Source of the DNA: an uncultured Christensenella sp.
Lineage (GTDB): Bacteria; Bacillota; Clostridia; Christensenellales; UBA1242
Direction of reading: 5' to 3'
DNA: 47,480 bases
Assembly (NCBI GenBank): GCA_964554475.1
Contig: CAZKOT010000005.1
Coordinates: 1 to 47,480, forward strand
Part shown: piece after piece, positions 6,831 to 47,480 of the stretch
How the letters are laid out: each line of letters begins with the position of its first letter
How positions within the stretch are numbered: position 1 is the stretch's first letter
The notes under the pieces: model-generated
What the model saw: only the letters and a program-made list of their open reading frames with translations
Told to the model about the DNA's origin: nothing
Databases searched by the model: none
Program-made: the position numbers and the translations under genes

Positions 6831-6835
6831 TTACA

Positions 6836-7176: not shown

Positions 7177-7182
7177 AAAAAC

Positions 7183-8623: not shown

Positions 8624-8645
8624 ATATACCTTTTAACTCAAAATT

Positions 8646-9608: not shown

Positions 9609-9617
9609 TGTCTCCTA

Positions 9618-9676: not shown

Positions 9677-9941
9677 TATTATTAATTAATAAAAATAGGG
9701 AAAAAAATATTATTTGATAAATAATAAAAGCATTAATTATTAATTTTTTTAATTGAGTTTATCACAAAATAGCAATAAGCATAATTTCAATCTCATTTTT
9801 TCGAATTTAAAGTTTTTACTTGACTTACTTTTTTTACAATGGTAATTTTAAAATGAAAAAATTTAAAAAAAATTTTTAAGCAATATTTCTAAAAAAGAAA
9901 AAATAAAAAATTTTAATTTTTATAAAAGGAAAAAAATAATA

Positions 9942-29571: not shown

Positions 29572-29580
29572 AAGTTTTTA

Positions 29581-29735
29581 GTAAACACCCCGTCAAGTCT
29601 TCGCTCTGTGACCGATTTACTTCGTAAATTCTGCAATTTGCTCAAATGCTCGGGCGTTGCCACCAGTAATTCCTGCAATTTGCTTGACACAAATTGACGC
29701 ACGGGCGGGGAATTATGTAGCGCAAACGCAAAAAA
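29581..29735 (+). repeat. GC-rich hairpin element, copy C (internally part-duplicated)
   Basis: Collinear with 32191..32298: caccccg..., gatttacttcgtaaatt hairpin, ctgcaatttgc present twice, gc(a)cgggcgggg. The overlapping minus-strand track ORF 29550..29798 is judged spurious. Confidence 0.65.
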
Positions 29736-29772
29736 ATCGTAATTAAAAAAAAGAAATAAAAAGGAGAATGAA

Positions 29773-29979
29773 ATGGAAATTGAAAAAGCACTAATCAAAG
29801 TTAAGTGTGATTTTTATGGTTGTAAAAATATGGCTGATTTTTCATTTAAAACAAGAAAAGTTTTTCAAAAAGAATTACATTTTTGTCGAAGTTGTTTAAA
29901 CGACCTTTACAGTGCAATAGGAAAAAATATTGTTCCAAAAGCAGCTGAAACACCATTTAAGAAAAAATCAAAAAATTAA
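29773..29979 (+). CDS. small zinc-ribbon protein (CxxxxC...CxxC), unknown function
   Basis: 68 aa. AAAGGAGA RBS. Cys pairs at CDFYGC and CRSC. Confidence 0.5.
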   Translation: MEIEKALIKVKCDFYGCKNMADFSFKTRKVFQKELHFCRSCLNDLYSAIGKNIVPKAAETPFKKKSKN

Positions 29980-30172
29980 TTTGTAAATAATAATTAACGG
30001 TAGATGAAGGAAAAAAGTAATTTAATAAAATAAAAACATTTGCTTTGCGAGCAAGCAATGATGAAATAAGTACAAGTAACATAACTAAAGAAATTTTTTC
30101 TTTATTTTTTCTTTATTTGTACTTTGAACTAATGCCTAACATAAAGCAAATTTTATTTCTAAGGAGATTTTA

Positions 30173-32077: not shown

Positions 32078-32099
32078 CATAAAAAAAAACACAAAAAAT

Positions 32100-32365
32100 T
32101 ACAAATAACAAAATATAAAATACAAATAAGGAATAATTAATATTTAATTAATTTATAAATCCTTATTTGTATTTTGTAATTAAAAATGAATACACACCCC
32201 GCCACTCCCTCGCTTATTGACGGATTTACTAGTGTAAATCCTGCAATTTGCCAAAGGAAATTGACGCTCGGGCGGGCAAAACCCCTCTCAAGAGGGAATT
32301 ATTAAAGGACTTATAGTTTAAAAAACCTTATTTGTATTTTGTATTTTGTTTTGTAATTTGTATAG
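32100..32365 (+). repeat. composite repeat unit, copy B: AT-rich arms plus a 108-nt GC-rich hairpin core (32191..32298)
   Basis: aaaatacaaataagga (32117-32132) pairs with tccttatttgtatttt (32160-32175). ccttatttgtattttgt recurs at 32326-32342. The core contains three hairpins (ggattta/taaatcc, caattt/aaattg, ccctct/agaggg). Confidence 0.75.
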
Positions 32366-32379
32366 AAATTGGAGGATAA

Positions 32380-33039
32380 ATGGAAAAAAATATAACAAGT
32401 CCCAGGGAACAACCCATCAGTTTGCCTGCAACATCCACAGAGGTGGAAAATGTAAAAGAAAGCGTTGAAGAAAATGTGCAGCAGCAACAATGTGGCTCCC
32501 TTGGAAAATTTAAAGACGCCGAAAGTTTACTCAATGCCTATAACAATTTGCAGGCAGAGTTTACAAAAAAGTGTCAATCACTTAGTGAAATAAAATCAAA
32601 AATTGAGAACACGCAAGAAAAAAAAGAAAGCGTGCCAATTTATGAAAAAGAAAACTGGGTGGAAAAGGTAACTTCGTTTTTATGTGAAAACAAAGATGCC
32701 AAACCTTTTGCCAAAGAAATAGCACAAAACATTATTGCAGATGAAGAACTTGCTTCAAAAGAAAATGCTTTGGAACTTGCTTGGGCAAAAGTTGCATCGT
32801 CAAAATATGTTGCTCCCGAACGAGCGGTTGAAGACGATGCGTTTGTTAATAATTACATTTTAAAAAGTGAAAAAATTAAAAGTGCGGTTTTGGATATGAT
32901 GTTAAAAGAAATGGCAAAAAACAATCCGCCAAAAGTTATTGCTTCGGAGCAAAAAGGAAGTTCGGCACCGTTTTCTAAACAAAAACAAGCAACTTCACTT
33001 TCTGAGGCGAAAGAAATGGTTAAACAGATGTTTAATTAG
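32380..33039 (+). CDS. phage scaffolding protein
   Basis: 219 aa, acidic, helical. GKFKDAESLLNAYNNLQAEFTKK motif is typical of Firmicute phage scaffolds. Lies between the portal and capsid genes. Confidence 0.6.
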   Translation: MEKNITSPREQPISLPATSTEVENVKESVEENVQQQQCGSLGKFKDAESLLNAYNNLQAEFTKKCQSLSEIKSKIENTQEKKESVPIYEKENWVEKVTSFLCENKDAKPFAKEIAQNIIADEELASKENALELAWAKVASSKYVAPERAVEDDAFVNNYILKSEKIKSAVLDMMLKEMAKNNPPKVIASEQKGSSAPFSKQKQATSLSEAKEMVKQMFN

Positions 33040-33186
33040 AATGCAAAGTGAGTAAAAGTTCAAATTACATATACAAGATACAAAATACAAATAAGAAAAT
33101 TTATCCCATTTGAATTATGTAATTTATATTTTGTGATTTTGAAATTATTAATTAAAAAATTTATAAAAAATTTAAGGAGGAAGTAA

Positions 33187-34401
33187 ATGGTTACACTAAC
33201 AAGTGCCGACAACGCCTTAAAATCGGTTTATTTGGGCGTTGTTGCAAATCAATTAAATATTAATGCAAACCCTTTGCTTGCAAAAATAAAACAGTCAACT
33301 CAAGATGTTTGGGGCAAAGAAATAATAAAACTTGCACCTTACGGTATTAATGGGGGAATCGGGGCAGGAGATGAAACCGATCCACTCCCAACCGCTGCTG
33401 CAAATAATTATGTTCAATTCAAATCCACCTTAAAAAATCTTTACGGAAAAATAGAACTTTCAGATAAGGCAATCAGGGCATCAGCAAACAATGCTGGTGC
33501 TTTCGTAAATCTTTTAAATGATGAAATGGAAGGATTGATTAAAGCAAGTAGTTTCAATTTCGGAAGAATGCTTTACGGAGATGGAAGCGGACTTTTAGCA
33601 ACGGTTACAGCTTACACAGCGGCAACAAAAGCAATAACGGTTGACAGTGTTCGCAATTTGATTGAAGGTATGGTTGTTGATTTTTTTGATGGTTCAACAA
33701 AAGTAACAGATGCAAGTGGCTACAGAATTACCTATGTTGACAGAACAAACAAGCAATTATTTTTAAATCTTCCATCAAACTTTAGTGCCGAAACAATTGT
33801 TGCGACTCAAACAATTTTTATTCAAAACTCAAAAGGATATGAAATTACTGGTTTAGGAGCAATTTTTGACACTACAGCAACAACTCTTTATGGTCTTACA
33901 AAAACAGATTATCCTTGGTTAAAACCATATGTTAGTACTGAAGAAACGGAAATCTCTGACGGTTTAATCCAAGGGGCAATCGACTTTTTGGAAGAAGCAA
34001 GTGGAAGTCAAGTAAACTTTATTGCTTGTGCAAGTGGTGTTCGCAGAGTTTATCAAGAGTATTTAGGCGCATACAGAAGAAATATTGATGTTATGGAACT
34101 TGCCGGCGGCTATAAGGCAATAACCTATAACGGCATACCAGTTGTCGCCGACAGGTTTGTTCCCGAAGGAAGTATGTTTTTGTTAAATACAAATGATTTC
34201 ACCCTTCATCAACTTTGTGATTGGAAATGGCTTGAGGGTGAGGACGGCAGAGTAATAAAGCAAAATGTAGGATATCCGACCTATAGTGCAACGCTTGTTA
34301 AATATGCAGATTTAATTTGCGACAAACCTTGCGGACAAGCAGTAATAAAAAATATTTTGTCAACTGTTACAAATCCATTTCAGGTTATAGTTCAAAGTTA
34401 A
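33187..34401 (+). CDS. phage major capsid protein
   Basis: 404 aa. Strong AAGGAGGA RBS. Position after the scaffold gene. The size and glycine-rich motifs fit an HK97-fold coat protein with an insertion domain. Family not assignable by eye. Confidence 0.65.
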   Translation: MVTLTSADNALKSVYLGVVANQLNINANPLLAKIKQSTQDVWGKEIIKLAPYGINGGIGAGDETDPLPTAAANNYVQFKSTLKNLYGKIELSDKAIRASANNAGAFVNLLNDEMEGLIKASSFNFGRMLYGDGSGLLATVTAYTAATKAITVDSVRNLIEGMVVDFFDGSTKVTDASGYRITYVDRTNKQLFLNLPSNFSAETIVATQTIFIQNSKGYEITGLGAIFDTTATTLYGLTKTDYPWLKPYVSTEETEISDGLIQGAIDFLEEASGSQVNFIACASGVRRVYQEYLGAYRRNIDVMELAGGYKAITYNGIPVVADRFVPEGSMFLLNTNDFTLHQLCDWKWLEGEDGRVIKQNVGYPTYSATLVKYADLICDKPCGQAVIKNILSTVTNPFQVIVQS

Positions 34402-34450
34402 TACTTTTTCGCTTAACAGTTTAACAGTATAAAACAAAAATATTAAAACT

Positions 34451-34525
34451 TACTTCGTTTTTGACTAAATTCGCTACTTGTCCTTGCAAATTGCGAACGC
34501 AAAATTATGTTAGGGCAAGTTGAGA
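34451..34525 (+). repeat. degenerate copy D of the GC-rich hairpin element
   Basis: Retains ttacttcgt (hairpin-1 loop of copies A and C) and gcaaattgcgaacgcaaaatt (hairpin-2 equivalent), inside the outer pairing acttgtcc/gggcaagt. Confidence 0.4.
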
Positions 34526-34640
34526 AATGAGAATATTTTAAATCTTTTGTGAGTAGAGCTGAATTATTAGTGATTAAAAAAAATAATTATTTACTAATAT
34601 TCGGCTCTTTACTCATTTATTAAATTTTTAGGAAATTGAA

Positions 34641-34916
34641 ATGAAAATTAAAATTGATAGTGATGTTTTTGAAATAACGAAACGTTTAAAAGCAATTGAC
34701 AATTCGTATTTCGTTTTATTTAACACACTTAAAAATTGCTATGAACTTCACAGTGAAAATCAACCTCACACAAGTTTTTGCTTAACTTTAGCTTTTAATT
34801 GTCTAGATGAACGAACAATCAACTTAACATTAAAAACTAGAAGTGAAAATAGAAAAATATTGTTTGAAGAAATTGAAAAAAATAATCAAAAAATAATGAA
34901 AAATGAACATGTTTGA
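34641..34916 (+). CDS. hypothetical phage-module protein
   Basis: 91-aa ORF, weak RBS, no recognisable family. Confidence 0.4.
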   Translation: MKIKIDSDVFEITKRLKAIDNSYFVLFNTLKNCYELHSENQPHTSFCLTLAFNCLDERTINLTLKTRSENRKILFEEIEKNNQKIMKNEHV

Positions 34917-34956
34917 AAAATCAATTACTAAATGCTTAAATAAAGTTATTACATCA

Positions 34957-34991
34957 ATACAAAATGCCTTATACATTTTGTATGGTTTTTA
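34957..34991 (+). terminator. hairpin plus T-run inside the phage module
   Basis: atacaaaatg (34957-34966) / cattttgtat (34974-34983), followed by ggttttta. Confidence 0.6.
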
Positions 34992-35039
34992 TTCCTAAAA
35001 TAAATTTTGAAAGATTGACTTTCAATTAAAAGGAGCAAT

Positions 35040-35609
35040 ATGCAAGTCAAAGAAATTTTGGAACTGGCATGTGTTTTTTTGGGAATGGACGAAGTTTTGG
35101 AAGATGAATACTTCACCGGAAATCCTGAAGGTGGCGATGATTCAACCGAAAAAGAAATTTCAAAACTATTAAAATGCTTAAATTTAATTGTTAATGAAAT
35201 TTCATCCGATTATCTTCCTCTTTTAACCGAGGAAGATGTTGTTTTTAATGATGAAAAATTATATTACACTGAACTCGACAAAACAATTTTGGAAGTTTTT
35301 TCTTTAAAAGATTTCAATGGTCGTGCCATTTCATTTAAAACTTTTCCAGAATATATTTCTGCAAATGTTCAAAATGCTTTACTTACCTACAGTTTTCAAC
35401 CTCAGGAACTCGAACAAGATGATGTCATAATTTATTATGGTGGAAAAATTCCCCCAAGAGTTTATGCCTATGGGGTTGCTATGGAGTATCTTTTTATTAG
35501 TAGTCAAAGTGACGAAGCGCATATTTGGGAAAAACGATACAAAGATTGCCTGTGTGAGATTGTTAGAAAAAAAAGTGAAACAAAACTTCCTTCACGGAGG
35601 TGGATTTAA
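35040..35609 (+). CDS. putative head-to-tail adaptor protein
   Basis: 189 aa. AAAGGAG RBS. Its stop overlaps the next start (TAATG). The assignment rests on position and size only (comparable to P22 gp4 / T7 gp11). Confidence 0.4.
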   Translation: MQVKEILELACVFLGMDEVLEDEYFTGNPEGGDDSTEKEISKLLKCLNLIVNEISSDYLPLLTEEDVVFNDEKLYYTELDKTILEVFSLKDFNGRAISFKTFPEYISANVQNALLTYSFQPQELEQDDVIIYYGGKIPPRVYAYGVAMEYLFISSQSDEAHIWEKRYKDCLCEIVRKKSETKLPSRRWI

Positions 35610-37123
35610 TGTTTAAACGAAAAGATTTACTTTTAAAAAAAATTAAAAAGTTTAAACTCACTTATTCTTCATTTGCAAATGGAATGAACACTGAAATTGA
35701 TGAAAATCTACTGCCCATTAAATATGCAAAAAAATTTTTTAATTTTTCAGTTAAAAGTGGTGCGTTAAAATCAGGTATGGGGTTTTCAGCATTATCTTTA
35801 CCAAAATATTATACAAGCGATGAAGAAAGATTAATCCCCGTTGTTAATCCCGATGAGGCAATTCTTTCAATTTGGCATTTTCCCTACTATCATGAAGACT
35901 CAAAAATAATTAGAAATAGTATTCTTTTTTACACTTCAACCGAACAGCTATTTTTTTTCCGTACGGTTTGGCAGTTTTCATCTTACTATACTTTGTTTAA
36001 TCCAACTCAGTATTTTAGCGGAAAAATGAATGCAATATATTACAAACTTAACGGGGTTGACAGTATGCTTATTTTTGTTCCCGAAGAGCAAAAGATTATT
36101 ATATTTCCCAAAACCGAAATTCCTCAAGTCATTACAGACACGCCTAATTTGGTTGATATTTGTCTTCACTATGAACGTCTTTTTGCAATTTTGGATGGTG
36201 ACCGAAAAACACTAATGTTTAGTGCTAATCTTGATCCTACAAATTGGGATGTTGAACTTTCAGAAGGTGGATTTATTGAACTTGCTGATGAGCGTGGAAG
36301 CATTAATAAAATTGTTTCTTTTAATGACTTTGTTTATGTTTTTCGTGATTATGGAGTTACAAAAATTTCAGCATATGGCGAACAAGAACAGTTTAGTGTT
36401 ACTCAACTTTTTAAATCATCGTCTAAAATTTATGGTAATTCTGTTGCTTGTTGTGGTGATAGAATTTTATTTCTTGCACGGGACGGTCTTCATGTTTTTG
36501 ATGGCTATTCAACATCAAAAATAATTCTTAACATAGAAAGCATGTTTGAAAATATTAACAACGAGAATTGTTTTGGAGTTTATTTTAACAGTAAGTATTA
36601 TTTGGCATGTAAACTTAATTTTAATGATGATGATCAAATAGGTTGTGAAAATTATAGTGGTGGTTATGTAAATAATGCTCTTATTGAATTTGATATAAAA
36701 ACGGGTGATTTTAACATCTTACGAGGAGTTGACATTCTTAATATGATTGCAATTGAAGAATTAAATATTTCAAAACTTGTTGCTTGTTTTAATGGAGAAT
36801 TTAAAAATCGTTTTGGACAACTTGACAAGAGTGGAAAAATTTTTGGAAATGTTTTGAGTAAGCAATGGCTCTCACCCCTTTCTAATTTCGGTTATCCAAA
36901 TCAAAAAAAAATTGTGCAAGAGGTTTTAATTAAATCAAAGTCTAATTGCAAGATTATTATTAAATCAAATTTAGAAGAAAAAACTTACACGATAAAAGGT
37001 AGTGAGGTTACACAACGCGTTAAAACTAATGTTCGTGGAGAATTAATTCAAATTAAGTTTATTTGTGATGAAGAAGGAGATGTTGAAATTTCAGCACCTC
37101 AAATTATTTTTGGTGTTGTTTAA
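35609..37123 (+). CDS. putative neck/tail-hub protein (position and size comparable to P22 gp10)
   Basis: ATG 35609 lies 8 nt after GGAGG and is coupled to the previous stop. About 505 aa. Repetitive beta-rich pattern (…VYVFRDYGVTKIS…ILFLARDGLHVFDG…). Confidence 0.4.
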   Translation: MFKRKDLLLKKIKKFKLTYSSFANGMNTEIDENLLPIKYAKKFFNFSVKSGALKSGMGFSALSLPKYYTSDEERLIPVVNPDEAILSIWHFPYYHEDSKIIRNSILFYTSTEQLFFFRTVWQFSSYYTLFNPTQYFSGKMNAIYYKLNGVDSMLIFVPEEQKIIIFPKTEIPQVITDTPNLVDICLHYERLFAILDGDRKTLMFSANLDPTNWDVELSEGGFIELADERGSINKIVSFNDFVYVFRDYGVTKISAYGEQEQFSVTQLFKSSSKIYGNSVACCGDRILFLARDGLHVFDGYSTSKIILNIESMFENINNENCFGVYFNSKYYLACKLNFNDDDQIGCENYSGGYVNNALIEFDIKTGDFNILRGVDILNMIAIEELNISKLVACFNGEFKNRFGQLDKSGKIFGNVLSKQWLSPLSNFGYPNQKKIVQEVLIKSKSNCKIIIKSNLEEKTYTIKGSEVTQRVKTNVRGELIQIKFICDEEGDVEISAPQIIFGVV

Positions 37124-37173
37124 GTCATAAAGATTAAATGTTGCTTAAAAGCAAAAATATAAGGGAGGAAAAA

Positions 37174-38118
37174 ATGTATCAATTTAATTTTTCGGATGAA
37201 GATAGCGAAGAAATTGTAAAAAAGGCAACAAAACTTGATGAGTTGTTTAAATCATTTGCAGATATTGACAAAAAATTTGACCTTTCAAGTAAAATTTCAG
37301 AAGAGGACTATAACAAAAAACTTGACTTAAAACGTCAAGAGTTTGAAAAAGCAAATGACGAAGAAGTGAAAAAAGAAGCAGAAAATAGTTTGCATGATTA
37401 CAAAACAACTTCAAAAAATCAAATAGAAAATGAGTATTTAGAAAAAGGAGAAGCAATAGACAAAACATTAACATCTCTTTCTGGAAGCAAAGAGGGGGCA
37501 AAAAGCGAAATCGAAAAAGCATATAAAACGGCAAAAGATAATGCTTCAAATGATGCAATAAAACGAGGACTAGCTCGCAGTTCAATTATTGTCAATAAAC
37601 TTGCTCAATATGATGAATCATATTTAAACGAGTTTACAAAAATTGAAAAAAATTATGCTGACACGGTTTCAAAACTTGATGCAGAAAAAAATTTGTTAGA
37701 AGTTCAAAGACAAAGCGCACTTGATAATTTTGATATTTCTTATGCAGTTAAACTTTCCGAAAAAATTGAGGGAATTAACGAAAAATTAGATGCAAAAGAA
37801 AAAGAAGTGATTGAATATAACAATAAAATACAGCAATTGGAAAAAGAATTTGAATTAGAGCAACAAGAGTTAAAAAGTAAAGATGAAAAAGAAAGTAAAA
37901 AAAGCAATTTAGATTTATTAAAATATATTTCACAATACGGCTCAACCACTCTTGACCGTTTTAAAGAGCAAGAAAAATACAGCCTTGCTTACAATTATTT
38001 AATGTCATTACCAAAGGGTCAGGCAATTTTTGAACTTGAAGAAAATTCTAATTTTAAAAATAATTTAAAAACATTATTTACAAAGTTGCAGAGCGAAATT
38101 AAGAATAGAAAAAATTAG
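37174..38118 (+). CDS. coiled-coil phage structural protein (plug/needle or internal protein candidate)
   Basis: ATG 37174 follows AAGGGAGGA (track ORF starts 37138). Lys/Glu-rich heptad-like sequence throughout. Confidence 0.4.
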   Translation: MYQFNFSDEDSEEIVKKATKLDELFKSFADIDKKFDLSSKISEEDYNKKLDLKRQEFEKANDEEVKKEAENSLHDYKTTSKNQIENEYLEKGEAIDKTLTSLSGSKEGAKSEIEKAYKTAKDNASNDAIKRGLARSSIIVNKLAQYDESYLNEFTKIEKNYADTVSKLDAEKNLLEVQRQSALDNFDISYAVKLSEKIEGINEKLDAKEKEVIEYNNKIQQLEKEFELEQQELKSKDEKESKKSNLDLLKYISQYGSTTLDRFKEQEKYSLAYNYLMSLPKGQAIFELEENSNFKNNLKTLFTKLQSEIKNRKN

Positions 38119-38250
38119 TGCTTGATGGCAAGGTTAGTAAAATTGAGGATAAAAGATTTTGCTTCTTTTGCTATTTCTTAAATTTTATTATTCATTATCT
38201 AAATATTAATTATTTAAGAAAACAGATGATTTTAGACAGGAGGTTAGTGT

Positions 38251-38556
38251 ATGATTTTTGAAGATATTTTAACCATGGCAATTAGCAATGGTATTTTTGC
38301 CGTGTTATTTGTTTTTCTTCTATTCTATCTTTTAAGAGATAGTGCAAATCGAGAAAAAAAATATCAGGAGACTGTTGAAAAACTTGCAAAACATCTTGAT
38401 ATTGTAGAAGATATGAAAGATGATGTTTCAAATATTAAAGAAGATGTTTTGGAAATTAAAAATATTGTGATTTTTAAAGGAAAAAAAGAGAAAAGTCAAA
38501 ATACAGAGAACAAATATAAAAGCTTTAATTTTAATAAAGATACGGAGGAAAAATGA
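38251..38556 (+). CDS. BhlA/UviB-family holin-like protein
   Basis: 101 aa. N-terminal TM (GIFAVLFVFLLFYLL) followed by RDSANREKKYQETVEKL, as in the BhlA/UviB family. Confidence 0.5.
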   Translation: MIFEDILTMAISNGIFAVLFVFLLFYLLRDSANREKKYQETVEKLAKHLDIVEDMKDDVSNIKEDVLEIKNIVIFKGKKEKSQNTENKYKSFNFNKDTEEK

Positions 38557-38807
38557 AAATTAAAAGTTATTCGTTTTGGACTTCTCTTTCAGCGGCGACG
38601 GTAATTATTGTAAAAACAATTTGTGAAGCATTTGGGCTTGAATTTGAAGAAAAAATTGTCGGAGACATTATTATGGCAATTTGCGGACTTTTGGTTGTTT
38701 TCGGAGTTGTTACAATGCCGAGTAAAAAAGAGAGTACTGAAGTAAAAGAAAAAATTGAAAAGAAGGAAAGTGAAGAAAATATTATTGACGACAGAGAAAA
38801 TAAATAA
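38553..38807 (+). CDS. phage holin (two TM helices)
   Basis: 84 aa. FWTSLSAATVIIVKTICEAFGL...IIMAICGLLVVFGVVTMP with a charged tail. ATGA overlap with the previous gene. Confidence 0.6.
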   Translation: MKIKSYSFWTSLSAATVIIVKTICEAFGLEFEEKIVGDIIMAICGLLVVFGVVTMPSKKESTEVKEKIEKKESEENIIDDRENK

Positions 38808-38832
38808 AAACTGACAGCTATAAATTATAAAT

Positions 38833-38863
38833 AATACTGCTTGTTAAGAGCAGTATTTTTTTT
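38833..38863. terminator. bidirectional terminator between the holin gene and the convergent peptidase gene
   Basis: aatactgct (38833-38841) / agcagtatt (38849-38857) plus T-run. Confidence 0.75.
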
Positions 38864-38933
38864 AAATAATTTTTTCAAAATAAGAAAAAAGTCTTTTTAC
38901 TAAGTTGAATATTATCTCAATTTTTAATTTATA

Positions 38934-40094
38934 TTAATTAAGCTTTGAGTAATCGTTTGTTGTTATTAGTTTTAGTGCCAATTTGGGAATATTTTTGTTT
39001 TGTTTGAAAAGTATGGGTAATAATTCTTCAGTAAGTGGATGAGTTAAATCATCACTCCCAAGTTCAATCGTGAAAGCGGGAACGTGAAATGTTTGACTAA
39101 CCCAATCAGAATATCCGCCAACAGATTGCTTTGTTTTTTCAATTTTGTACCCCGTTATTATTGCAATTTTTTTTGCAATTTTTTTGTCTCTTTCAATTTC
39201 ATTTTTTGACAATTTTTCAAAACCATAAAATATTACTTCACCTTTAGTGTGATAAGAAATTGTCATCATTGGTTTGACTTGCAAAGTAAAATCAATTAAT
39301 GCTTTTACTTCGGGTTCGCTGTTTGGCTCTTTTCCCACATAATTTAACGGAGCAGGAAAGAATACATTTGATTTTCCATTTCCCCAAAGGGCATCAAAAT
39401 TGACGTTGAGGTCCACTGCATTTGCATTCGCTTTCCATAGACTGCGAATAAAAGACGAAATGCTACGTTCCTCACAACTTGCTTCGGGCTCCAGGTCTTC
39501 GCCCTCAAAAAACTCTTGCGTGTTTTTGTTGTTCGGAGTACTGGGATGCGAGGCCAGACAGTCATTAACGCTCGCCTTTTTAATGTTTCCGCTCGCAAGC
39601 GTGCTCAACCTACAAAAACGTAAAATGTTTTTGGCGGCTCGCGGAAATAAACTCCTGCCTGTCCTCATATCCCGAGCTTTGCCTATTGCATTGTCTTCGA
39701 GGTCCATATTATGAGGATTGTAAATATTTTTTTTGTTTAATCTATAATTTTTTATAATCTGTTTTAAAAACTCTTTTTTTTCATCAAAAATTTTATTTTC
39801 TATTCCATTCATTGCAAGAAGTGCACCGTCGGGATTGCAAAGGGGAATAAAATAAATTCCTCCATAGTGCGTTAGTTTTGAAAAATCTTGTTTCAAATAA
39901 AATTTTAAAAGTTCCAAAACCAAAAGGGAAGAGACCCATTCACGAGCATGAATTCCGCCCTCAATAATAATTTGATTTTTTGAGTTGTCGCCTACATGAA
40001 AAGCATAAATATTTTGTCCAAGCACGCTTTTTCCAATAATTTGCTTTGGGCAAGTAATTTGCATTATTTCTTTTTCTAATTCTTTAAAGTTCAC
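38934..40094 (-). CDS. M14-family zinc peptidase (gamma-D-glutamyl-diamino-acid endopeptidase type) carrying a GC-rich in-frame insertion
   Basis: GGIHAREW (HxxE), LCNPDG, LWKANANAVDLNVNF, NSEPE and SYHTKGEVI motifs. GTG start at 40094 (alternative ATG at 40064). About 85-97 extra codons lie between NPDG and WKAN. Confidence 0.8.
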   Translation of the reverse strand: MNFKELEKEIMQITCPKQIIGKSVLGQNIYAFHVGDNSKNQIIIEGGIHAREWVSSLLVLELLKFYLKQDFSKLTHYGGIYFIPLCNPDGALLAMNGIENKIFDEKKEFLKQIIKNYRLNKKNIYNPHNMDLEDNAIGKARDMRTGRSLFPRAAKNILRFCRLSTLASGNIKKASVNDCLASHPSTPNNKNTQEFFEGEDLEPEASCEERSISSFIRSLWKANANAVDLNVNFDALWGNGKSNVFFPAPLNYVGKEPNSEPEVKALIDFTLQVKPMMTISYHTKGEVIFYGFEKLSKNEIERDKKIAKKIAIITGYKIEKTKQSVGGYSDWVSQTFHVPAFTIELGSDDLTHPLTEELLPILFKQNKNIPKLALKLITTNDYSKLN

Positions 40095-40258
40095 ATAAGT
40101 TAATATGAAAAAAATATTTTTTATGATAAAAAAACATTAATAAATAGATAAGTTTTTCACTAAAAAGAAAAAATTATGGTAAAGCTTTTTTGTAAAAAAT
40201 ACATTGCTTAATGTTATTTAGTAATGTTATAATAAAAAAAACAAAAGAGGAAATTATT

Positions 40259-41011
40259 ATGGTTTGGTGGCAAAATATTTTAATTGTTGTTGTTTTCTCC
40301 ATTGTGCTTTTTTATTTATATTTAAGATTATTATCAAAAGGAAGTGCTGGTGAATTTGTTGTCAAGCTTGTTTTAATTTTTCTTAACAAGAATGAGTATA
40401 AAAAATTTCATGATATAACAATTCAAGATAATGATAAAACAGTTCAAATTGACCACTTAATTATTTCAAAATATGGTGTTTTTGTTGTGGAAACAAAAAA
40501 TTATTCGGGAACAATTTATGGCAACGAAAACGCAAGTCATTTTTACAAATATAATCATCAAAAGAAGTATGAATTTTACAATCCAATCAAACAAAATTAT
40601 GGACATATATTTGCTTTAAAAAATGTTTTGGGAGACTACAAATATATTTCTGCTGTTGTATTTTCGGGGTATGCAACAAAACTGAAAATTGAAAGTACGT
40701 CTTTTGTGGGATACATTGGAGATTTACCACGATATATAAAATCTTTTAAAGAAGAACTTTACAGTGAAGAACAAGTCACTGAAATTGCAAACAAGATAAA
40801 ATCACTTTCCTTAAAAAATGTATTGTTAAAAAGCAAACATGTTAAAGATATAAAAGAACGCATGGAAGTTTATGATGAAAAAGTGGCACAGATGATTTGT
40901 CCAAAATGTGGAAACGTGCTTGTTGTGCGAAATGGACAATACGGTAAATTTATAGGCTGTTCATTATATCCAAATTGCAAATTTAAAAAGAAAATAGTAG
41001 ATAAATTATGA
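40259..41011 (+). CDS. NERD-domain protein with a C-terminal topoisomerase-type zinc ribbon
   Basis: N-terminal TM, IDHLIISKYGVFVVETKNYSG NERD core, CPKCG...CSLYPNC zinc finger. ATG 40259 follows AGAGGA (track ORF starts 40211). Confidence 0.75.
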   Translation: MVWWQNILIVVVFSIVLFYLYLRLLSKGSAGEFVVKLVLIFLNKNEYKKFHDITIQDNDKTVQIDHLIISKYGVFVVETKNYSGTIYGNENASHFYKYNHQKKYEFYNPIKQNYGHIFALKNVLGDYKYISAVVFSGYATKLKIESTSFVGYIGDLPRYIKSFKEELYSEEQVTEIANKIKSLSLKNVLLKSKHVKDIKERMEVYDEKVAQMICPKCGNVLVVRNGQYGKFIGCSLYPNCKFKKKIVDKL

Positions 41012-41122: not shown

Positions 41123-41485
41123 ATGTTTTTTATGCCACAAAAAAAGGAAAATATGAAAATTTTTAGAACAATTTTAAATATAATATTTTTAGCAATACAA
41201 GGCGTGCTGTTATTTTTTGTTTTTCAATCTTACTTTGTAGCAAATGCTTTGATTCCGTCTGAAGGAATCGGTTTATTTGATTTTTTTGTTTTATTTACTT
41301 TTTTATTTACAACAGTTCCAGTTTTCGGTATTTTGTTAATAATAAGTTTTATCATCAATATTTCAATTTTAATTAAATCATTATTTCGAATTAGGAAACA
41401 ATGGTGGTTACTTTTAATCGAATTAGCGATTTTGGGTGCGCATTTGTATTTAGGAATAAGTTTTTATTTGGCTTTAAAAGGTTAA
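41123..41485 (+). CDS. small polytopic membrane protein, unknown function
   Basis: 120 aa with 3-4 hydrophobic helices. No family recognised. Confidence 0.45.
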   Translation: MFFMPQKKENMKIFRTILNIIFLAIQGVLLFFVFQSYFVANALIPSEGIGLFDFFVLFTFLFTTVPVFGILLIISFIINISILIKSLFRIRKQWWLLLIELAILGAHLYLGISFYLALKG

Positions 41486-41822: not shown

Positions 41823-41850
41823 TTGACACTAAATTGTTTTATGATATAAT
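41823..41850 (+). promoter_or_regulatory. near-consensus sigma-A promoter
   Basis: TTGACA (41823-41828), 16-nt spacer, TGaTATAAT extended -10 (41842-41850). Confidence 0.65.
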
Positions 41851-41856
41851 GTAACT

Positions 41857-41985
41857 AATGAATTTAGGAAACATTTTAAATTTAATAATCATTCAAAAAG
41901 TTCCTAGTGGATTAGGGGACTTAGAAATTTATAAACCAAAAAATAATGCCATGTTTTAGAGTATTCTCGACGTGGCATTTTTGTT
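41857..41985 (+). ncRNA. candidate ~125-nt small RNA or terminator-containing leader upstream of the giant ORF
   Basis: Bounded by the consensus promoter and the terminator aatgccatg (41945-41953) / cgtggcatt (41971-41979) plus T-run. No ORF inside. Class not recognised. Confidence 0.45.
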
Positions 41986-42082
41986 TATAAATGTAAGAAA
42001 TCATTTTAAATAAGGCGAAAAAATTTTTCAATTAAAACACAAGTATGAAAAAAAGCAAATTATAAAAAAATTTGAGGTACGG

Positions 42083-45000
42083 ATGAAAAAATATAATGTC
42101 AAATTAAATATTGTTTTTCAAACACTAATGATTTTATTAAGTGTGTTTAGTGTTGTAATTGGTTCATTATTTGTTTCTTATTCGTCAAATAAAGTATTCG
42201 CAAATTTTAATCCTTTAATGGTACAATATAACCAAACTCAAGAACAGGAAAGCTCAAGTGACAAAAAAAATATTGAAATTACCACCTACAAACTAAATGA
42301 TAACACTGGATACAATATTAATAGCAGTGATCAAATTTCAAATGATAATCATTTATTAAAAGATGCAAATGAAATTGGAAAAACATTTTTAAATCTTTCA
42401 GTGATTGCAGAGAGTGATTTTCCTCAAGGTGAAACAAGTGACGGCAGAGTTGGGGCATTTATTGAAACAACAAATGAGCAAAATTTGTTATTGAAACAAA
42501 ATGGAATCAATGCTTATGGTGTTTCAGGTTCACGTGTTTATATTGGTCTTAATTACAATTTTGACAAAATTTTAGGCTTTGTAAATTATGAAAATGTTCC
42601 AAAAGGAACAAAATCAAATATTGAATTTTCATCTGATACAGCGACTTCAATTGGCGGAAAAACTGTTGGTGAAATTAAGTATGGCGGAATTTTAATTCAA
42701 AAAAAGACTTCAATTAATGACATTTATCAAATGCAAACAAAGCAAGGAGAAACTTTTGATAATATTCACACAACAGACTTAACAACTTGGTTTAGTCCAG
42801 AAATCTATGTTAATGGTTATGAAACTGCTAAACTTTTTCAGTTAAGCGGACAAGACATTAATAATGGAGTTTTCATTCAAATTCAATTTGCATATGAGTT
42901 GAAATATACATATAGTTGGCATGAGCAAGCAGATTTTTGGCATTGGTGGGGTGAAGACAAAAGCGAAACGGTTTATGTCAATATGTTGGAAGTTGCCGAG
43001 TTTTATGTTGTACAAAATTCAGGAGTTGTTTCCTTTCACAATGCATCAACAACTAGCACAGTTGAAAACGAAGGAACAAGTGAGGCAGTTAGGCAGGCAG
43101 GGACAATTTTGAGCGGACACACAAGTTTTAATGGATTTAGACTTAACACTTTGGGAGCGAGTTACCAAGTTGAATATAGTAAAAATTTTTCTTCATTTGC
43201 TTTGGCAGAAGACGGGCAATTTTTCAGTGAGCAAGGCAGATATGATTTTAAAATCACAACCAAACTTGGAAAAGTTCGAGAGCATGTTATTTTTATTGAT
43301 AAGCGAGAAATTAATGATGCGGTTTGGGCATATTTTGGAGAAAGTTTGCTAACAAGCAAGGGAGATAGTGAAGAGAGTCTTGACAGTTATCGTCTTTTCA
43401 CAACTGGAGAGTTACCGACCTATTTAGCCGAGCAGACATATTATCACTTGAATAGTTTAAACAATTTATTTGCAAAAGCATATGGCAGAATTTACAAAGA
43501 ATCTGATGTTGAAGGTGACGAACGAGTTTTTATTGCAGAAATAACACAGGAAAATCCTGATGGCACAATTTTGGAGGAAGGAATTTACACAGCCGATTTT
43601 TATACTGATTATGGGGCATATGGCGAAGCTTTTGGAATTTCGAATTGTGGCAGTTCAAGCGGTGACAGTTATCATTTTATCTTCAAATTTGAAGTTGTGG
43701 ATAAGGAAACCCCGAGTAATCCATTTGTTAATGAGGAGTACTTAAACTCTTTCATTTCTGTTTCAGATTTAATGGCAAAGTATTATGCAATAACTCTTCA
43801 AAGTTCTGGAACTGGAAAAGTGGCATTTGCCTTTGCTGATTATTTTGGAGCATATAATTTTGCATACAATTACGAACGAAGTTTTATTGAAATTTTGGGA
43901 GATAATCAATTTCAATACAAATCTCTTGATGACCCTCAAATCTTAAATATTTACAACTCTCAATTTTCAGTTTTAGAGGCAGTTGATAAATATGCAGAGG
44001 AATTAATTGAAATTAAATATTTTGATGCAAGTGAGCCACAAACTTATCAAACAGCAAATATTGCCGATGAAGCGGTTTTAAATTTTGAATTTGAAGAAGA
44101 TATTGTTATATTTCTAAATGACATTGAACAAGAACTTGCAACTGATAGTAATAATTTTTTAAATGGACGAAAATATCGAAGTGTTAATTCTGACGGAACT
44201 ATTTCTGATGGAATTATTTATCCAACATTTTTGGCAGTTGGTGAATTTGAAACAAAAACCATTACTTTAATTAACAAGACTGACCCAACAATAGAGTTTA
44301 ATATTGTGTATGGTGTTTCCATTGAACAACAACTTTTAGAAGTAAATGCCCCAAGTGGAAAATATATTGTTAAAGAAGAAAACAAATACGGAACAATAAG
44401 TGAATATGAGGTTACATATATTTGTAATGGAGAAATGAGTGGAGTTGTTACTTTTGAAGTTTTCCATAACGGAGAAACGGAAACAAAAATAATAACCAAC
44501 CTTAACAATGAGCAAACAATTTTTGCAAATGGTTTTGTTTTAAAGAGTATAACAAATGAATTAGACAAGCATTCAATTATTAAAATTTCAAAGGACGGAG
44601 CGCAACAAAATATTTTTGAATTTAACGAAGTTCAAGATTTGATTTTTTATGAGGCAGGAGAATATCTTTTTACTTTTGTTGACAGACTAGGTAATTTGTT
44701 TAATTATAATGTTATAATTACTGACCAAGTTGGCTATCAAAACATTTCTTTTGTTAGTGAAGATGAAACAGTTCAAAACACATTTGCTTTTATTGGACAA
44801 ACAATAACCTTTCCAATTCCAGATGTAGCAGAGGGTTTTGAATTTATGGGCTGGCAATGTGGCGAAATTTTTGCGCCTGTAGGAGAAAATTTTACATTAA
44901 TTTCAAATGAAGACTTAGATTTTGTTGAAGTTTTACATTTTATTGAAACCACAATTACTTTATATGACGGAGAAATTTATACAACACTCACAGCAAAGCC

Positions 45001-47480
45001 CGATGACAGAGTTCTTTTACCATTTCCAGAAATGGCAGGTTTTTCATTCATTGGTTGGGGACGAGAATTAGACAGTGAATTGCATATTTATTACGGGCAA
45101 ATAACCAGTCTTGACAATGTTAGTGAAATAAGACTTGATGCACTTTGGATTGCAAATAAAAATTATGACGATAATGATATTTTAAGTGGCTTTGGTGATG
45201 AAATTGTTATCACCTATGTTGACGGAACAATATTAAACAGTTTTACTGTGACAGTTGGAACAGAAATAACACTGTCAGCACCTTCACCAAGAGCGGGTTT
45301 TGAATTTGTTGGCTGGTTTGAACGAGTTAGTGGAATTAACGGTTATATTTGGAGCGGAACCGAAGTTGTTGAGGCTGATGCAGATAACAAAATTGTTTTT
45401 GAAGCAATTTGGAAAGGTATTTCACAGCAAGAACAACAAAATGCTCCCACCTTTGCAGAAACAATAAATCCTGTTGAACGATTTTTTAATAATCTTGCAA
45501 ATGGATTAACAACCGCTTGGAATAATGGATTTGATGTTGCGTTATTTGTTTTATTAGGGATTACCGTTTTTGCTGTTGTAAGTTATTATCTTTCAAAAAA
45601 ATTGAAAATGGAAAACAGACAATGGAAAATTAATGGTGACTTTGCTCCAATTAATTTCAATACACAATACATAATGCACAATACTCAATTAAAGCACAAT
45701 GGTTTCATAAAAGAAAATAAACAAAATCAAAATAATAAAGATATTAATCAATTACTAACAAATGAAAACTTATTGCATAACGAACAATTTAATAAAGTAA
45801 AAAAAGAAAAAAATTCATATAAATTTAAAAAACCTGTAAAGTTTAAATTAAAACACTTAATGATTTGTGTTTCTTTTGTTATGTCAATACTTTTCATGGG
45901 AATTGTATGTTTAGAAAAATTGCCAAGCGGTGTTTTTGAAAATAATTCACAATCCATAGTTCAAAGTTCACAGCTGATTGATGAAGATGAAAATAAAGAA
46001 AAACATTTAACAAAAAAAGAGGTTTTAAATAAATTTAATGATTTATCAAATCAAGTAATCTCTCAATTCTCCACTCTCAATTCTCGAATTAACAATAGTT
46101 CTCAATTCTCAGGTGAAATTGGTGAAGAAGAGCAAGAAGAGCAAGTCTTAACCGATGATGAGGCTTTCTTGTTTGCTTTGGCTGCAATTGATCTTTTGGG
46201 CTTGGGTTATACTGTCTTCCCGGCAATTGCAGTAAAAAATGATGAAACAGAAATTAAAGGACTTGCTTACACAGATTTTATTGATGGATTTACACAAGAA
46301 GAGGATGAGCGAGTTTATTTCGGCAGTGGATTTGTTGCATTACCTTATCAACAAATTATAACAAATGAAGAAGTTGAAGAAGGAATTAAAATTTATTCAC
46401 TTGATGAAAATGGTGAAAAGATTATTGATGATGAGTATGGCTACATTCTTTCATTTAGCGAAAGTTATGAAAATTCTTTACACTATATATCAAATGAAAA
46501 ATATGTAACTTACAAATTAAATGGTTACAATGTTGAATATGAAATACTGCCAAACTTGGAAGAAAATTATAATTTAAGTTTGGGTGCTCTTTATTCTTAT
46601 GATCTTGAGAGAAATATTTTTGACCCAGATTTAGGGCAAGAGTTTAATATTACAGGAACAAGCATAAATAGTTTACTTGACCCAGTTATGGCACAAGCTC
46701 AATTTAATGCTTATGTTGCCGAGCAAACAAAGAATGGCTTTACTGTTGACACTCTCAATTTCTCATATATTTCACTTGAAGCATTGGATGCGGTGATTTT
46801 AGGCGAACAAGAGGAATCCTTTTTAGGGCTTTCTCCTGATGAGATTTATGAGTATGAAAAAAATCTTGCAATAAATGAATATTACGCTGTTGTCACAGAT
46901 GAAGAGGGCAACAGTCAATTAACAAAATTTGAACTTCCGCAAAACGAGCCAGAACTTTCATTTTGGGAAAAAATCAAAGCAGGTTTTTCCTCTATTGTTG
47001 TCGGCGTTGGAATGATTGTTGTTGGAGTTGTTATTGCGAGCGTTGTGAGTTGTTTTGCTTCACCTGCACTTGGGCAAATTGTTATGGGTGCATTTATGGG
47101 AGCAGGGATTGAACTTGTTATGCAAGGTATTGACGGAAAATCTCTTAGCGAAGTTAATTGGCTTAAAGTTGGAGTTGCAGCTGTTAGCGGAGCAATTTGT
47201 GCAATTCCAGGAATGGCTTGGTGGGGTGCAGCATTAGTTGGCGGACTTTCTCAAGCAGCAACAACAGCAATTGATGGAGGAAGTCTTGAAGAGTGTCTGC
47301 TATCCTTTGCAACAGGTGTGGCAATTGGTGTTGCAATTCATTTTGCAGGAAAATTACTTAATAAAGCTGTTAGTAAAATAAAAGGAAAGCTTGATTGCTT
47401 TGTTGCTGGAACATTAATACTTCTTGCCGATGGAACAGTAAAAACAATTGAAGATATTAAAGTTGGCGACAAGGTAAAAA
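42083..47480 (+). CDS. giant multi-domain surface / polymorphic-toxin-like protein, 3' end beyond the window
   Basis: I translated this frame by eye and met no stop from ATG 42083 (GAGG RBS) to base 47480. It has an N-terminal signal anchor and three G(F)xF(I/V/M)GW B-repeat modules (about 44750-45420). Two internal TM helices follow, then a Gly/Ala-rich hydrophobic region and a Hint block-A motif, CFVAGTLILLADGTVKTIEDIKVGDKV, from 47396. Confidence 0.85.
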   Translation, partial: MKKYNVKLNIVFQTLMILLSVFSVVIGSLFVSYSSNKVFANFNPLMVQYNQTQEQESSSDKKNIEITTYKLNDNTGYNINSSDQISNDNHLLKDANEIGKTFLNLSVIAESDFPQGETSDGRVGAFIETTNEQNLLLKQNGINAYGVSGSRVYIGLNYNFDKILGFVNYENVPKGTKSNIEFSSDTATSIGGKTVGEIKYGGILIQKKTSINDIYQMQTKQGETFDNIHTTDLTTWFSPEIYVNGYETAKLFQLSGQDINNGVFIQIQFAYELKYTYSWHEQADFWHWWGEDKSETVYVNMLEVAEFYVVQNSGVVSFHNASTTSTVENEGTSEAVRQAGTILSGHTSFNGFRLNTLGASYQVEYSKNFSSFALAEDGQFFSEQGRYDFKITTKLGKVREHVIFIDKREINDAVWAYFGESLLTSKGDSEESLDSYRLFTTGELPTYLAEQTYYHLNSLNNLFAKAYGRIYKESDVEGDERVFIAEITQENPDGTILEEGIYTADFYTDYGAYGEAFGISNCGSSSGDSYHFIFKFEVVDKETPSNPFVNEEYLNSFISVSDLMAKYYAITLQSSGTGKVAFAFADYFGAYNFAYNYERSFIEILGDNQFQYKSLDDPQILNIYNSQFSVLEAVDKYAEELIEIKYFDASEPQTYQTANIADEAVLNFEFEEDIVIFLNDIEQELATDSNNFLNGRKYRSVNSDGTISDGIIYPTFLAVGEFETKTITLINKTDPTIEFNIVYGVSIEQQLLEVNAPSGKYIVKEENKYGTISEYEVTYICNGEMSGVVTFEVFHNGETETKIITNLNNEQTIFANGFVLKSITNELDKHSIIKISKDGAQQNIFEFNEVQDLIFYEAGEYLFTFVDRLGNLFNYNVIITDQVGYQNISFVSEDETVQNTFAFIGQTITFPIPDVAEGFEFMGWQCGEIFAPVGENFTLISNEDLDFVEVLHFIETTITLYDGEIYTTLTAKPDDRVLLPFPEMAGFSFIGWGRELDSELHIYYGQITSLDNVSEIRLDALWIANKNYDDNDILSGFGDEIVITYVDGTILNSFTVTVGTEITLSAPSPRAGFEFVGWFERVSGINGYIWSGTEVVEADADNKIVFEAIWKGISQQEQQNAPTFAETINPVERFFNNLANGLTTAWNNGFDVALFVLLGITVFAVVSYYLSKKLKMENRQWKINGDFAPINFNTQYIMHNTQLKHNGFIKENKQNQNNKDINQLLTNENLLHNEQFNKVKKEKNSYKFKKPVKFKLKHLMICVSFVMSILFMGIVCLEKLPSGVFENNSQSIVQSSQLIDEDENKEKHLTKKEVLNKFNDLSNQVISQFSTLNSRINNSSQFSGEIGEEEQEEQVLTDDEAFLFALAAIDLLGLGYTVFPAIAVKNDETEIKGLAYTDFIDGFTQEEDERVYFGSGFVALPYQQIITNEEVEEGIKIYSLDENGEKIIDDEYGYILSFSESYENSLHYISNEKYVTYKLNGYNVEYEILPNLEENYNLSLGALYSYDLERNIFDPDLGQEFNITGTSINSLLDPVMAQAQFNAYVAEQTKNGFTVDTLNFSYISLEALDAVILGEQEESFLGLSPDEIYEYEKNLAINEYYAVVTDEEGNSQLTKFELPQNEPELSFWEKIKAGFSSIVVGVGMIVVGVVIASVVSCFASPALGQIVMGAFMGAGIELVMQGIDGKSLSEVNWLKVGVAAVSGAICAIPGMAWWGAALVGGLSQAATTAIDGGSLEECLLSFATGVAIGVAIHFAGKLLNKAVSKIKGKLDCFVAGTLILLADGTVKTIEDIKVGDKVK

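Follow-up and report, generated by a model that had tools for sequence, protein, structure and literature searches.

A probable membrane-embedded polymorphic toxin, predicted as a fusion of two modules, at the end of an uncultured Christensenella contig

The stretch of DNA analysed here is a 47,480-nucleotide contig of an uncultured Christensenella sp. (GenBank assembly GCA_964554475.1, contig CAZKOT010000005.1), called the window below, and it ends inside an open frame of at least 1,799 codons. The question raised by this locus is what protein the frame encodes and what its missing end would hold. An initial annotation, made without database searches, had read it as a composite surface protein with the hallmarks of a polymorphic toxin. 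Our analysis leads us to regard the open reading frame (ORF) as probably representing all but the last ∼100–250 residues of a membrane-embedded polymorphic antibacterial toxin, a fusion of two modules (A and B), from a large and unnamed family of gut Clostridia. As far as sequence allows us to judge, the type of system is a known one, a polymorphic toxin system; the new elements would be an undescribed scaffold, a two-gene fusion and a multi-pass membrane form.

The truncated gene and its relatives

Translation from ATG 42083 to the last base of the window (42083–47480, plus strand) gave 1,799 codons with no stop. The other five frames over the same interval contain 88–236 stops each and their longest open runs are 59–137 codons; with the composition of the window (A 0.37, T 0.33) the random chance of 1,799 open codons is ∼1e-71. 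The uninterrupted frame that had first been reported thus stands, and it is missing from the ORF list, as had also been stated, because the list leaves out ORFs that are still open at an end of the sequence. As the window is the complete NCBI contig, the gene is cut by the assembly and its 3′ end is not recoverable here; full-length relatives of 1,890–2,030 residues suggest that the 5′ ∼90% of the gene is present. An exact 55-nt search of the JGI metagenomes for the continuation gave zero matches, and relatives, but not this contig, were found when GTDB genomes, JGI metagenomes and IMG/VR were scanned with profiles and patterns.

A word-indexed search returned three such relatives: P0001 (1,890 residues, 47% identity, 99% coverage), P0002 (2,030 residues, 35% identity) and P0003 (1,932 residues, 27% identity). 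All three align with the window protein over its entire 1,799 residues and then continue into a full PT-HINT domain. Scanning the GTDB representative genomes located further loci in metagenome-assembled genomes (MAGs) of Christensenellaceae, Clostridiaceae, Eubacteriales and ‘Clostridia’, and the order of the parts is identical in these loci and in P0001–P0003.

The window holds the first 28 residues of the PT-HINT, or bacterial intein-like (BIL), domain (47396–47480), beginning at the nucleophile Cys1772 of the sequence CFVAGT; this was assigned from sub-threshold Hint matches and from the alignment to P0001–P0003. The Hint-family matches cover residues 1772–1798 (27–28 residues), with Hom_end_hint at 22.1 bits (cut-off 32.1) and Hint_2 at 13.6 bits, and PT-HINT (PF07591) was not reported. 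In P0001–P0003 the PT-HINT domain is complete (75–105 bits against a cut-off of 27.7), starts exactly at the column of the window's CFVAGT and aligns column for column, and Cys1772 is an invariant column of the alignment (A1). The family HINT profile matches the BIL domain with PDB code 2lwy (3e-29) and the HINT domain of the Streptomyces umbrella toxin UmbC (PDB code 8w20; 9e-19). The block B motif T/S-x-x-H and a C-terminal HN are present in P0001–P0003, in P0005 and at loci L009 and L011. In the relatives the domain is a mini-domain of ∼140 residues without a homing endonuclease, located 70–125 residues from the C-terminus. The position next to HN is occupied by S, G, K, R, F or V and the sequence downstream is unrelated between members; the variable residue and the lack of a conserved extein therefore indicate a cleaving BIL/PT-HINT domain, not a splicing intein. 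The initial annotation had named a complete intein within a housekeeping-type extein as one of two findings that would speak against its proposal (the other being an in-frame stop), and no such extein occurs in the relatives.

The tips that follow the terminal HN are 70–125 residues long and mutually unrelated, with at least eight unrelated types in 12 HINT-bearing members. At L009 the tip is an AHH nuclease (PF14412, E = 8e-16) and the adjoining gene encodes Imm11 (PF07791, E = 4.5e-16), a family tabulated as immunity for Tox-AHH (Zhang et al., 2012; PMC3482391); the two offer a toxin–immunity pair that is immediately testable. The array downstream of this pair has two more Imm11 paralogues (three in all), two leucine-rich-repeat (LRR) proteins and two other paralogue sets, the LRR proteins resembling, as judged by eye, the LRR gene that abuts a GIY-YIG-like tip in L001. 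Tox-GHH (1e-11) is the tip at L016; it follows, in an overlapping frame, P0006, the closest relative of the window C-terminus (65% identity), which lies at the start of its contig, and a 172-residue gene comes next. Small genes overlap or abut the stop codon in L001, L005, L006, L011, L014, L017 and L019, and signal peptides are absent from the immunity candidates in the loci of the relatives. The core of the first proposal, a scaffold with a pre-toxin HINT domain whose variable tip and immunity gene lie past the window, is thus supported through the PT-HINT domains, the tips and the AHH/Imm11 pair of the relatives.

Several other features of these C-terminal regions and loci were seen. A cysteine lies 1–3 residues past the terminal HN and is kept despite the unrelated tips (HNSC, HNGC, HNKC, HNSAC, HNRNC, HNFC and NNVC in P0001–P0003, P0005, P0006, L009 and L011); it could mark a recombination junction or have a role in release. 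On the P0002 contigs a 1,139-residue MACPF and Flg_new protein (L001, 24811–26093), which may act as a partner that forms pores or as a further weapon, is encoded a few genes downstream of the toxin locus. Upstream of the split A and B genes of L014, positions 1–3786 hold a second toxin cassette in the same island, with a DUF87 (HerA/VirB4-type) ATPase, a 272-residue Colicin-DNase/WHH toxin and a DUF6985 gene. P0004 (JGI, 2,185 residues) was rejected as a family member, as it is unrelated and had matched the 28-residue Hint start only; it carries rhodanese, thioredoxin-like and subtilase S8 domains followed by an unusual array of about a dozen tandem Hint/AXH-like modules, each opening with CFLPGT.

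The size of the family was estimated with a profile of the N-domain, the large N-terminal ectodomain described below. When 1.84 billion representatives were searched exhaustively with HMMER, 330 clusters passed E ≤ 1e-3 and 208 passed E ≤ 1e-30, so that the family comprises at least 330 clusters when counted at 50% identity; a word-indexed search with the N-domain alignment had given zero matches though P0001–P0003 exist, which was taken as a limit of the tool. Among the best 150 of the 330 clusters ∼27 are fused giants of 1,860–2,340 residues, in which two transmembrane (TM) helices flank a linker. A further ∼56 are of 1,200–1,599 residues, mostly ∼1,220–1,360, the size class of separate A proteins (the presence of a B neighbour was checked in three loci only), and the remainder are shorter or fragments. 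With local hidden Markov models, the middle domain of module B was found in every fused giant and the HINT domain in about eight of the ∼27. The family appears to be confined to uncultured gut Clostridia. An 80-residue piece of N-domain (40% identity to residues 494–580) in an intergenic gap of a Christensenellaceae MAG (L012, 10001–10240) looks like a decayed remnant of a family member.

The source names of the relatives are only ‘InlB B-repeat-containing protein’ and ‘hypothetical protein’, three of the modules have no Pfam model and full-text literature searches found no paper on the architecture of the giant protein. The statement of the initial annotation that this architecture is undescribed was thus borne out, for a family that is large.

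Two modules, their fusion and their predicted topology

Module A begins with a predicted signal peptide or signal anchor (residues 1–40; 42083–42202), with lysines at positions 2, 3 and 7, a 22-residue hydrophobic core (residues 10–31) and a possible cleavage site between VFA and N. Hydropathy and inspection place the N-terminal signal or anchor that had been noted earlier at residues 6–35 (peak 2.33), and relatives have AxA-type cleavage sites (for example AYA before E and ALA before D). The N-domain follows (residues 62–885; 42266–44737), a β-rich ectodomain conserved in nine relatives (alignment A2). Searches of Pfam, NCBIfam and the PDB by sequence and profile gave zero matches to it, in agreement with the earlier description of ∼850 residues of no recognised family. 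The halves of the N-domain, the middle domain and the hydrophobic block, when scanned separately, also gave no Pfam match even at E ≤ 10.

The N-domain is followed by three InlB B-repeat (Flg_new)-like modules (residues 886–952, 953–1026 and 1037–1113; 44738–45421), identified by Pfam and by internal alignment. The three B-repeats of the initial annotation hold up as mutually alignable repeats with a common Flg_new pattern and the motif G[FY]xFxGW, but as Pfam matches only the third passes, and marginally (PF09479, residues 1047–1086, 27.1 bits against a cut-off of 27); the first is sub-threshold (E = 0.037) and the second has no match. Flg_new scores higher in relatives (47 bits in P0002 and 32 bits in P0003). 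Next come TM1 (∼1150–1170; 45530–45592; hydropathy 2.39), predicted to run from outside to inside, a K/N/Q-rich linker that is predicted to be cytoplasmic (45593–45856; 19 K+R against 7 D+E in residues 1171–1268) and is poorly conserved in the family alignment, and TM2 (∼1259–1278; 45857–45916; hydropathy 2.73), predicted to run from inside to outside. This succession of helix, basic linker and helix is as first described.

A conserved domain was also found where a ∼350-residue domain had been reported, but it spans ∼270 residues and is preceded by a low-complexity spacer of ∼75 residues. This middle domain (residues 1356–1626; 46148–46960) is an α/β ectodomain common to stand-alone lipoproteins (alignment A4), for which searches of Pfam, of PDB sequences and with Foldseek found no match. 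The Gly/Ala-rich hydrophobic block behind it (residues 1627–1771; 46961–47395), with hydrophobic segments clustered at residues 1630–1757, is predicted to form five membrane helices and a K-rich juxtamembrane helix, from hydropathy, AlphaFold2 (AF2) models and loop charges in 23 relatives, and it leads into the 28 residues from Cys1772, again in the order first given. No Pfam or NCBIfam match at E ≤ 1 to LXG/WXG domains of type VII secretion, RHS/YD repeats, TPS-FHA (CdiA), MuF or TANFOR was found on the 1,799 residues or on P0001–P0003, and no Pfam match to a PrsW/CPBP membrane peptidase was found in the hydrophobic block of the window protein or of eight relatives.

Searching with the C-terminal 510 residues returned stand-alone proteins of 784–799 residues (P0007, P0008 and P0010), which start with a lipobox signal peptide (LLGC or LYGC) at the position equivalent to TM2. 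Their middle domain and hydrophobic block align with those of the window protein over ∼400 columns, including the motifs VNWxKVGVAAVSGA and IDGGSxxE; they do not contain HINT. At L014 a 1,306-residue gene (4088–8008) lies immediately upstream of such a B gene (8001–10355), with an overlap of 8 nt, and is homologous to residues 141–925 of the window protein (BLASTP 3e-43); the protein starts with a signal peptide, contains Flg_new-like repeats and ends in a TM anchor and a charged tail. The order A (∼1,300 residues), B (∼790 residues) and a small gene (124–142 residues) recurs in L017/L018 and L019. The split neighbours allow us to recognise the window protein as A fused to B: on this comparison of sequences the giant ORF joins, in a natural fusion, two genes that are adjacent, and sometimes overlapping, in other lineages. 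In the fused protein TM1 corresponds to the C-terminal anchor of the split A proteins, which close with a TM helix and a charged tail, the basic linker represents the cytoplasmic tail of A, and TM2 takes the place of the lipoprotein signal peptide of B. That the two modules occur fused is direct evidence of their working together, and the existence of fused and split forms gives a handle on which parts do so.

Two further proteins, X (∼750–960 residues, with internal repeats) and Y (∼1,065 residues), are signal-anchored, have no Pfam match and are encoded next to the fused genes in L001 (17179–23297), L005 (6687–12532) and L006 (1799–4045 and 11370–14558), X also in L011 (121–1926). L001 and L007 share an extracytoplasmic function (ECF) sigma factor and two uncharacterised genes just upstream. 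X, Y, the sigma factor and these upstream genes may be accessory parts of the system.

The AF2 model of the N-domain, from four sequences, was poor, with a predicted local distance difference test score (pLDDT) of 49 and a predicted template modelling score of 0.26. Foldseek matched this model only to strings of Ig/FnIII-like modules (GhpA, CEA, cadherins and FnIII), with query-normalised TM-scores of 0.05–0.13 and r.m.s.d. values of 30–76 Å for the top-ranked entries. Such matches to a poor model point only to a richness in β-sandwich; they are compatible with an adhesin-like arm but are no proof of one. The model of the middle domain with the bundle (eight sequences, pLDDT 71) has five long helices; in the middle domain the first ∼150 residues are α/β (pLDDT 80–91) and residues ∼160–270 are poorly modelled (35–63). 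Foldseek against the PDB gave nothing below E = 0.05 for this model (best E = 0.06). A kinship of the hydrophobic block with type III secretion translocators (SseC/YopB/AopB) was considered and rejected: the only PDB match, to AopB (3wxx_B, E = 3.4e-4), has a composition-bias term of 10.3 on a 22-bit domain score, covers one Gly/Ala TM hairpin and is taken as compositional, and Pfam SseC (PF04888) reached E = 0.21 in one relative with no match in the window protein.

The charges of the loops between the five helices (a–e) alternate across 23 members. The a–b loop (three uncharged residues) is assigned to the inside, the acidic b–c loop to the outside, the c–d loop, with K-rich insertions in many members, to the inside and the acidic d–e loop (0.5 K+R against 2.5 D+E) to the outside, and the segment after helix e is basic (2.6 K+R against 0.4 D+E) and inside. 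This alternation therefore suggests five crossings, which would leave HINT and toxin facing the cytoplasm of the producer. On inspection the divergent P0003 subfamily likewise has five hydrophobic helices whose loops alternate in the same way, the signal behind the last one being weaker. Module A would lie outside by virtue of its signal peptide, the basic linker fits a cytoplasmic loop and the middle domain would again be outside, agreeing with its lipoprotein form. The window protein is thus predicted to cross the membrane seven times, with its toxin end probably facing the cytoplasm of the producer. The view of the protein as a large Gram-positive exoprotein or surface protein therefore needs refinement: a seven-pass membrane protein derived from two fused genes, with a cytoplasmic toxin end, is predicted in place of a simple exoprotein.

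Expression signals and genomic setting

A sigma-70-type promoter (TTGACA, 16 nt, TGnTATAAT; 41823–41850, plus strand) lies 233 nt upstream of the ATG, with 12 of 12 hexamer matches and an extended −10 TG; it is a pattern match, and the count of promoter-like sites nearby equals the shuffled expectation. Behind this perfect match the giant gene has a leader of 232 nt (41858–42082), in which the sequence can be read as an 8-bp hairpin, ATGCCATG ... CGTGGCAT, followed by a T-run (41946–41986, plus strand). The leader folds with −45.1 kcal/mol, against −30.6 ± 3.7 in shuffles (z = −3.9), and gave zero matches in an Rfam search; the hairpin could be a putative attenuator or riboswitch-like control. 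A ribosome-binding site, GAGGT (42074–42078, plus strand), was read 5–9 nt before ATG 42083.

The GC content is ∼30% throughout the window, which is chromosomal, and the giant gene does not differ from its surroundings. Among its genes are those for PPDK, MetK, MazF, a Zn ABC transporter, NrdDG and PnuC, together with a full fab/acc operon. MetK, NrdD, FabF and PPDK are singletons at 90% identity among ∼15 billion proteins, so that this collection contains no closely related sequenced organism. At 4957–6830 two paralogous HTH_3 regulators lie side by side on the minus strand (4957–5511 and 5526–6065), together with a MazF/PemK toxin gene (6483–6830) that has no antitoxin ORF of at least 100 residues upstream.

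Behind the genes named so far, the order is an 805-residue Flg_new_2 surface protein, a prophage remnant, a NERD/Zn-ribbon gene, a small three-TM gene and the giant ORF. The 805-residue protein (26722–29139) combines a signal peptide with a Flg_new_2 repeat and a TM anchor at its C-terminus and is a second InlB-repeat surface protein; kinship with the N-domain or with companions X and Y was rejected, as it is unrelated to them. The remnant (29266–40094) comprises a small-terminase-like fragment (29266–29571), a P22-type portal (30173–32077), a major head protein (33187–34401), a virion structural protein (35600–37123), DUF7934 (37138–38118), two holins (38251–38807) and, on the opposite strand, an M14 zinc carboxypeptidase (38934–40094). 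Genes for a large terminase, an integrase, a tail or replication were not seen in this interval, which could be a decayed prophage or a satellite-like element. The gene at 40211–41011 encodes a NERD nuclease-related protein joined to a Zn ribbon of the topoisomerase type, of which an exact-protein look-up found an identical copy only on a 2-kb Logan contig (run SRR8925737), the sole further trace of this organism to be found. The same look-up had no record of the 120-residue three-TM protein (41123–41485) encoded directly upstream of the giant gene.

Mode of action, rival explanations and known systems

In the mechanism that we favour, module A consists of a putative Sec signal peptide, a β-rich ectodomain of ∼800 residues, three InlB-type repeats, a TM anchor and a basic tail, and would display an adhesin-like arm through the wall that picks the target. 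Module B comprises a TM helix (a lipoprotein signal when split), the ∼270-residue ectodomain, the predicted five-helix Gly/Ala bundle and a putative PT-HINT autoprotease domain, and in the relatives it ends in a variable nuclease-type tip that is followed by one or more cytoplasmic immunity genes. The missing end of the window gene would accordingly hold the rest of HINT and the toxin tip, with an immunity gene adjoining. HINT may free the tip by an N–S acyl shift at Cys1772, by Asn cyclisation at the terminal HN or by both, and the immunity protein would protect the producer and its kin. Because HINT and toxin are placed on the cytoplasmic face, a further export step would be needed, and the five-helix bundle is the most likely candidate for a conduit or membrane-insertion device. 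Exit through the bundle (by analogy with the PrsW conduit), shedding of membrane vesicles or help from companions X and Y are the candidate routes.

The delivery of Gram-positive polymorphic toxins outside the type VII pathway is largely an open matter, and the recent answers, umbrella particles and ABP toxins, have each been mechanistically new. We offer tentatively, as a possibility rather than an expectation, that A and B constitute an unrecognised Sec-inserted system by which Gram-positive gut Clostridia deliver toxins from cell to cell: the A arm would recognise a neighbour and the B bundle would move the cytoplasmic-side nuclease out and into the target, or toxin-filled vesicles would be shed, with HINT cleavage as the release.

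Several points weigh against the reading of the ORF as a membrane-embedded antibacterial toxin. The tip and immunity gene of the window's own gene lie outside the window and were not recovered. Only about eight of the ∼27 fused representatives carry HINT, and at least 10 of the ∼19 without it have in common one P0007-like C-terminal domain, whose WHH/LHH-type HNH signature is weak (E = 0.017) and which is also present in the split B proteins P0007 and P0010; polymorphism therefore characterises the HINT-bearing branch. A role of module A as an adhesin relies on the poor model (pLDDT 49) and the InlB-type repeats, and the topology on hydropathy, the positive-inside rule and a model of medium confidence (pLDDT 71). 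Finally, a toxin that faces the cytoplasm would need an exit route, and a nuclease tip tethered to a membrane bundle on the apparently wrong side of the membrane is a puzzle in its own right.

The main rival explanation is a toxin that acts on its own producer. The ectodomains would then sense phage attachment or envelope damage and HINT would release the nuclease inside the cell, in abortive infection or programmed death, with the ‘immunity’ protein as an antitoxin. The predicted cytoplasmic position of HINT and nuclease, immunity candidates that lack signal peptides, the lack of an evident export route and the prophage remnant adjoining the window gene all agree with this. It is nevertheless unlikely, as the relatives are not phage-linked, tips swapped on a conserved body are a signature of intercellular conflict and L009 has a poly-immunity array with paralogues and LRR genes of the L001 type (homology judged by eye). 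Such arrays are usually explained as protection from the toxins of other cells (PMC3482391). The hypervariable tips on a conserved body also speak against a non-toxic surface adhesin or wall protein that uses its BIL domain for self-processing only. That explanation draws on the InlB-type repeats and β-rich ectodomain, on the NCBI name ‘InlB B-repeat-containing protein’ of relatives and on the window's own tip being out of view; BIL domains also occur in non-toxin surface proteins. With AHH and Tox-GHH nucleases among the tips of the relatives, and Imm11 adjoining the AHH tip, we consider it improbable.

The prophage remnant could also point to a phage-borne function for the giant gene, as a tail fibre, a receptor-binding protein or a packaged toxin of the MuF type, belonging with the portal, major head protein, virion structural protein, two holins and peptidase encoded at 29.2–40.1 kb; phages are known to encode polymorphic toxins of the MuF class (PMC3482391). 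The window protein, however, has no MuF or tail domain, its gene is separated from the phage genes by the NERD and membrane-protein genes and by its own putative promoter, and its GC content equals that of the surrounding chromosome. Phage genes occur in none of the loci of the relatives and no relative was found in IMG/VR, making this origin very improbable. Least credible of all, to the point of being nearly negligible, is a true splicing intein inside a housekeeping-type protein. Its basis is that Hom_end_hint is the best Pfam match on the last 27 residues and that there is a weak NCBIfam match to an intein-containing radical SAM model. In the relatives the Pfam assignment is PT-HINT above the cut-off, the ∼140-residue domain close to the C-terminus has no homing endonuclease and is followed by unrelated sequence, and the +1 position behind HN shows no conservation of C, S or T. 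The reading of the ORF as an intercellular, membrane-embedded polymorphic toxin thus remains the one that we prefer.

The nearest known systems can be compared with this protein part by part. InlB B-repeat/Flg_new proteins of Firmicutes similarly place 2–4 Flg_new-type repeats between an ectodomain and a membrane anchor, but the repeats make up ∼12% of the present protein and the remainder is not assigned to a family. MafA/MafB and Myxococcus TraAB/SitA also encode a lipoprotein or surface partner side by side with a toxin-bearing protein, which are here separate or fused; those systems are Gram-negative and outer-membrane-based and have no sequence relation to this one. BIL domains (PDB code 2LWY) share the N-terminal Cys nucleophile and, in the relatives, the T/S-x-x-H block and terminal HN, and likewise have no endonuclease insert, whereas the window holds the first 28 residues only and autoproteolysis is putative here. 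Toxins fused to a PrsW peptidase have a multi-helix membrane domain immediately N-terminal to the toxin, as here, and that domain has been proposed as a conduit for extrusion and release (PMC3482391); they differ in that no PrsW/CPBP match or motif is present in our protein, which has five helices rather than eight and would use HINT, not an intramembrane protease, for release. CdiA/CdiB and the Gram-positive WapA are alike in logic, with a surface arm able to bind the target, a swappable C-terminal nuclease and a cognate immunity gene, but the protein described here has no two-partner secretion (TPS) or FHA module, no YD repeats and no outer-membrane partner, and is instead a predicted Sec-inserted integral membrane protein.

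A further resemblance is to the PT-HINT polymorphic toxins (PMC3482391), including UmbC (PDB code 8W20; PMC11062931) and Neisseria MafB. These share the conserved scaffold, the PT-HINT/BIL domain and a short hypervariable tip (AHH, GHH or GIY-YIG-like), as well as, in our relatives, a cognate cytoplasmic immunity gene immediately downstream and poly-immunity arrays. The present scaffold differs from theirs in having no RHS, ALF, LXG, TPS/FHA, MafB-N or TANFOR module, in its prediction as a multi-pass membrane protein with two ectodomains and a cytoplasm-facing toxin directly after the five-helix bundle, and in existing in both fused and two-gene forms. If the tentative proposal of delivery by A and B holds, the A/B system would be a new trafficking class beside the type V, VI and VII systems, the umbrella (Umb) particles and the ABP toxins.

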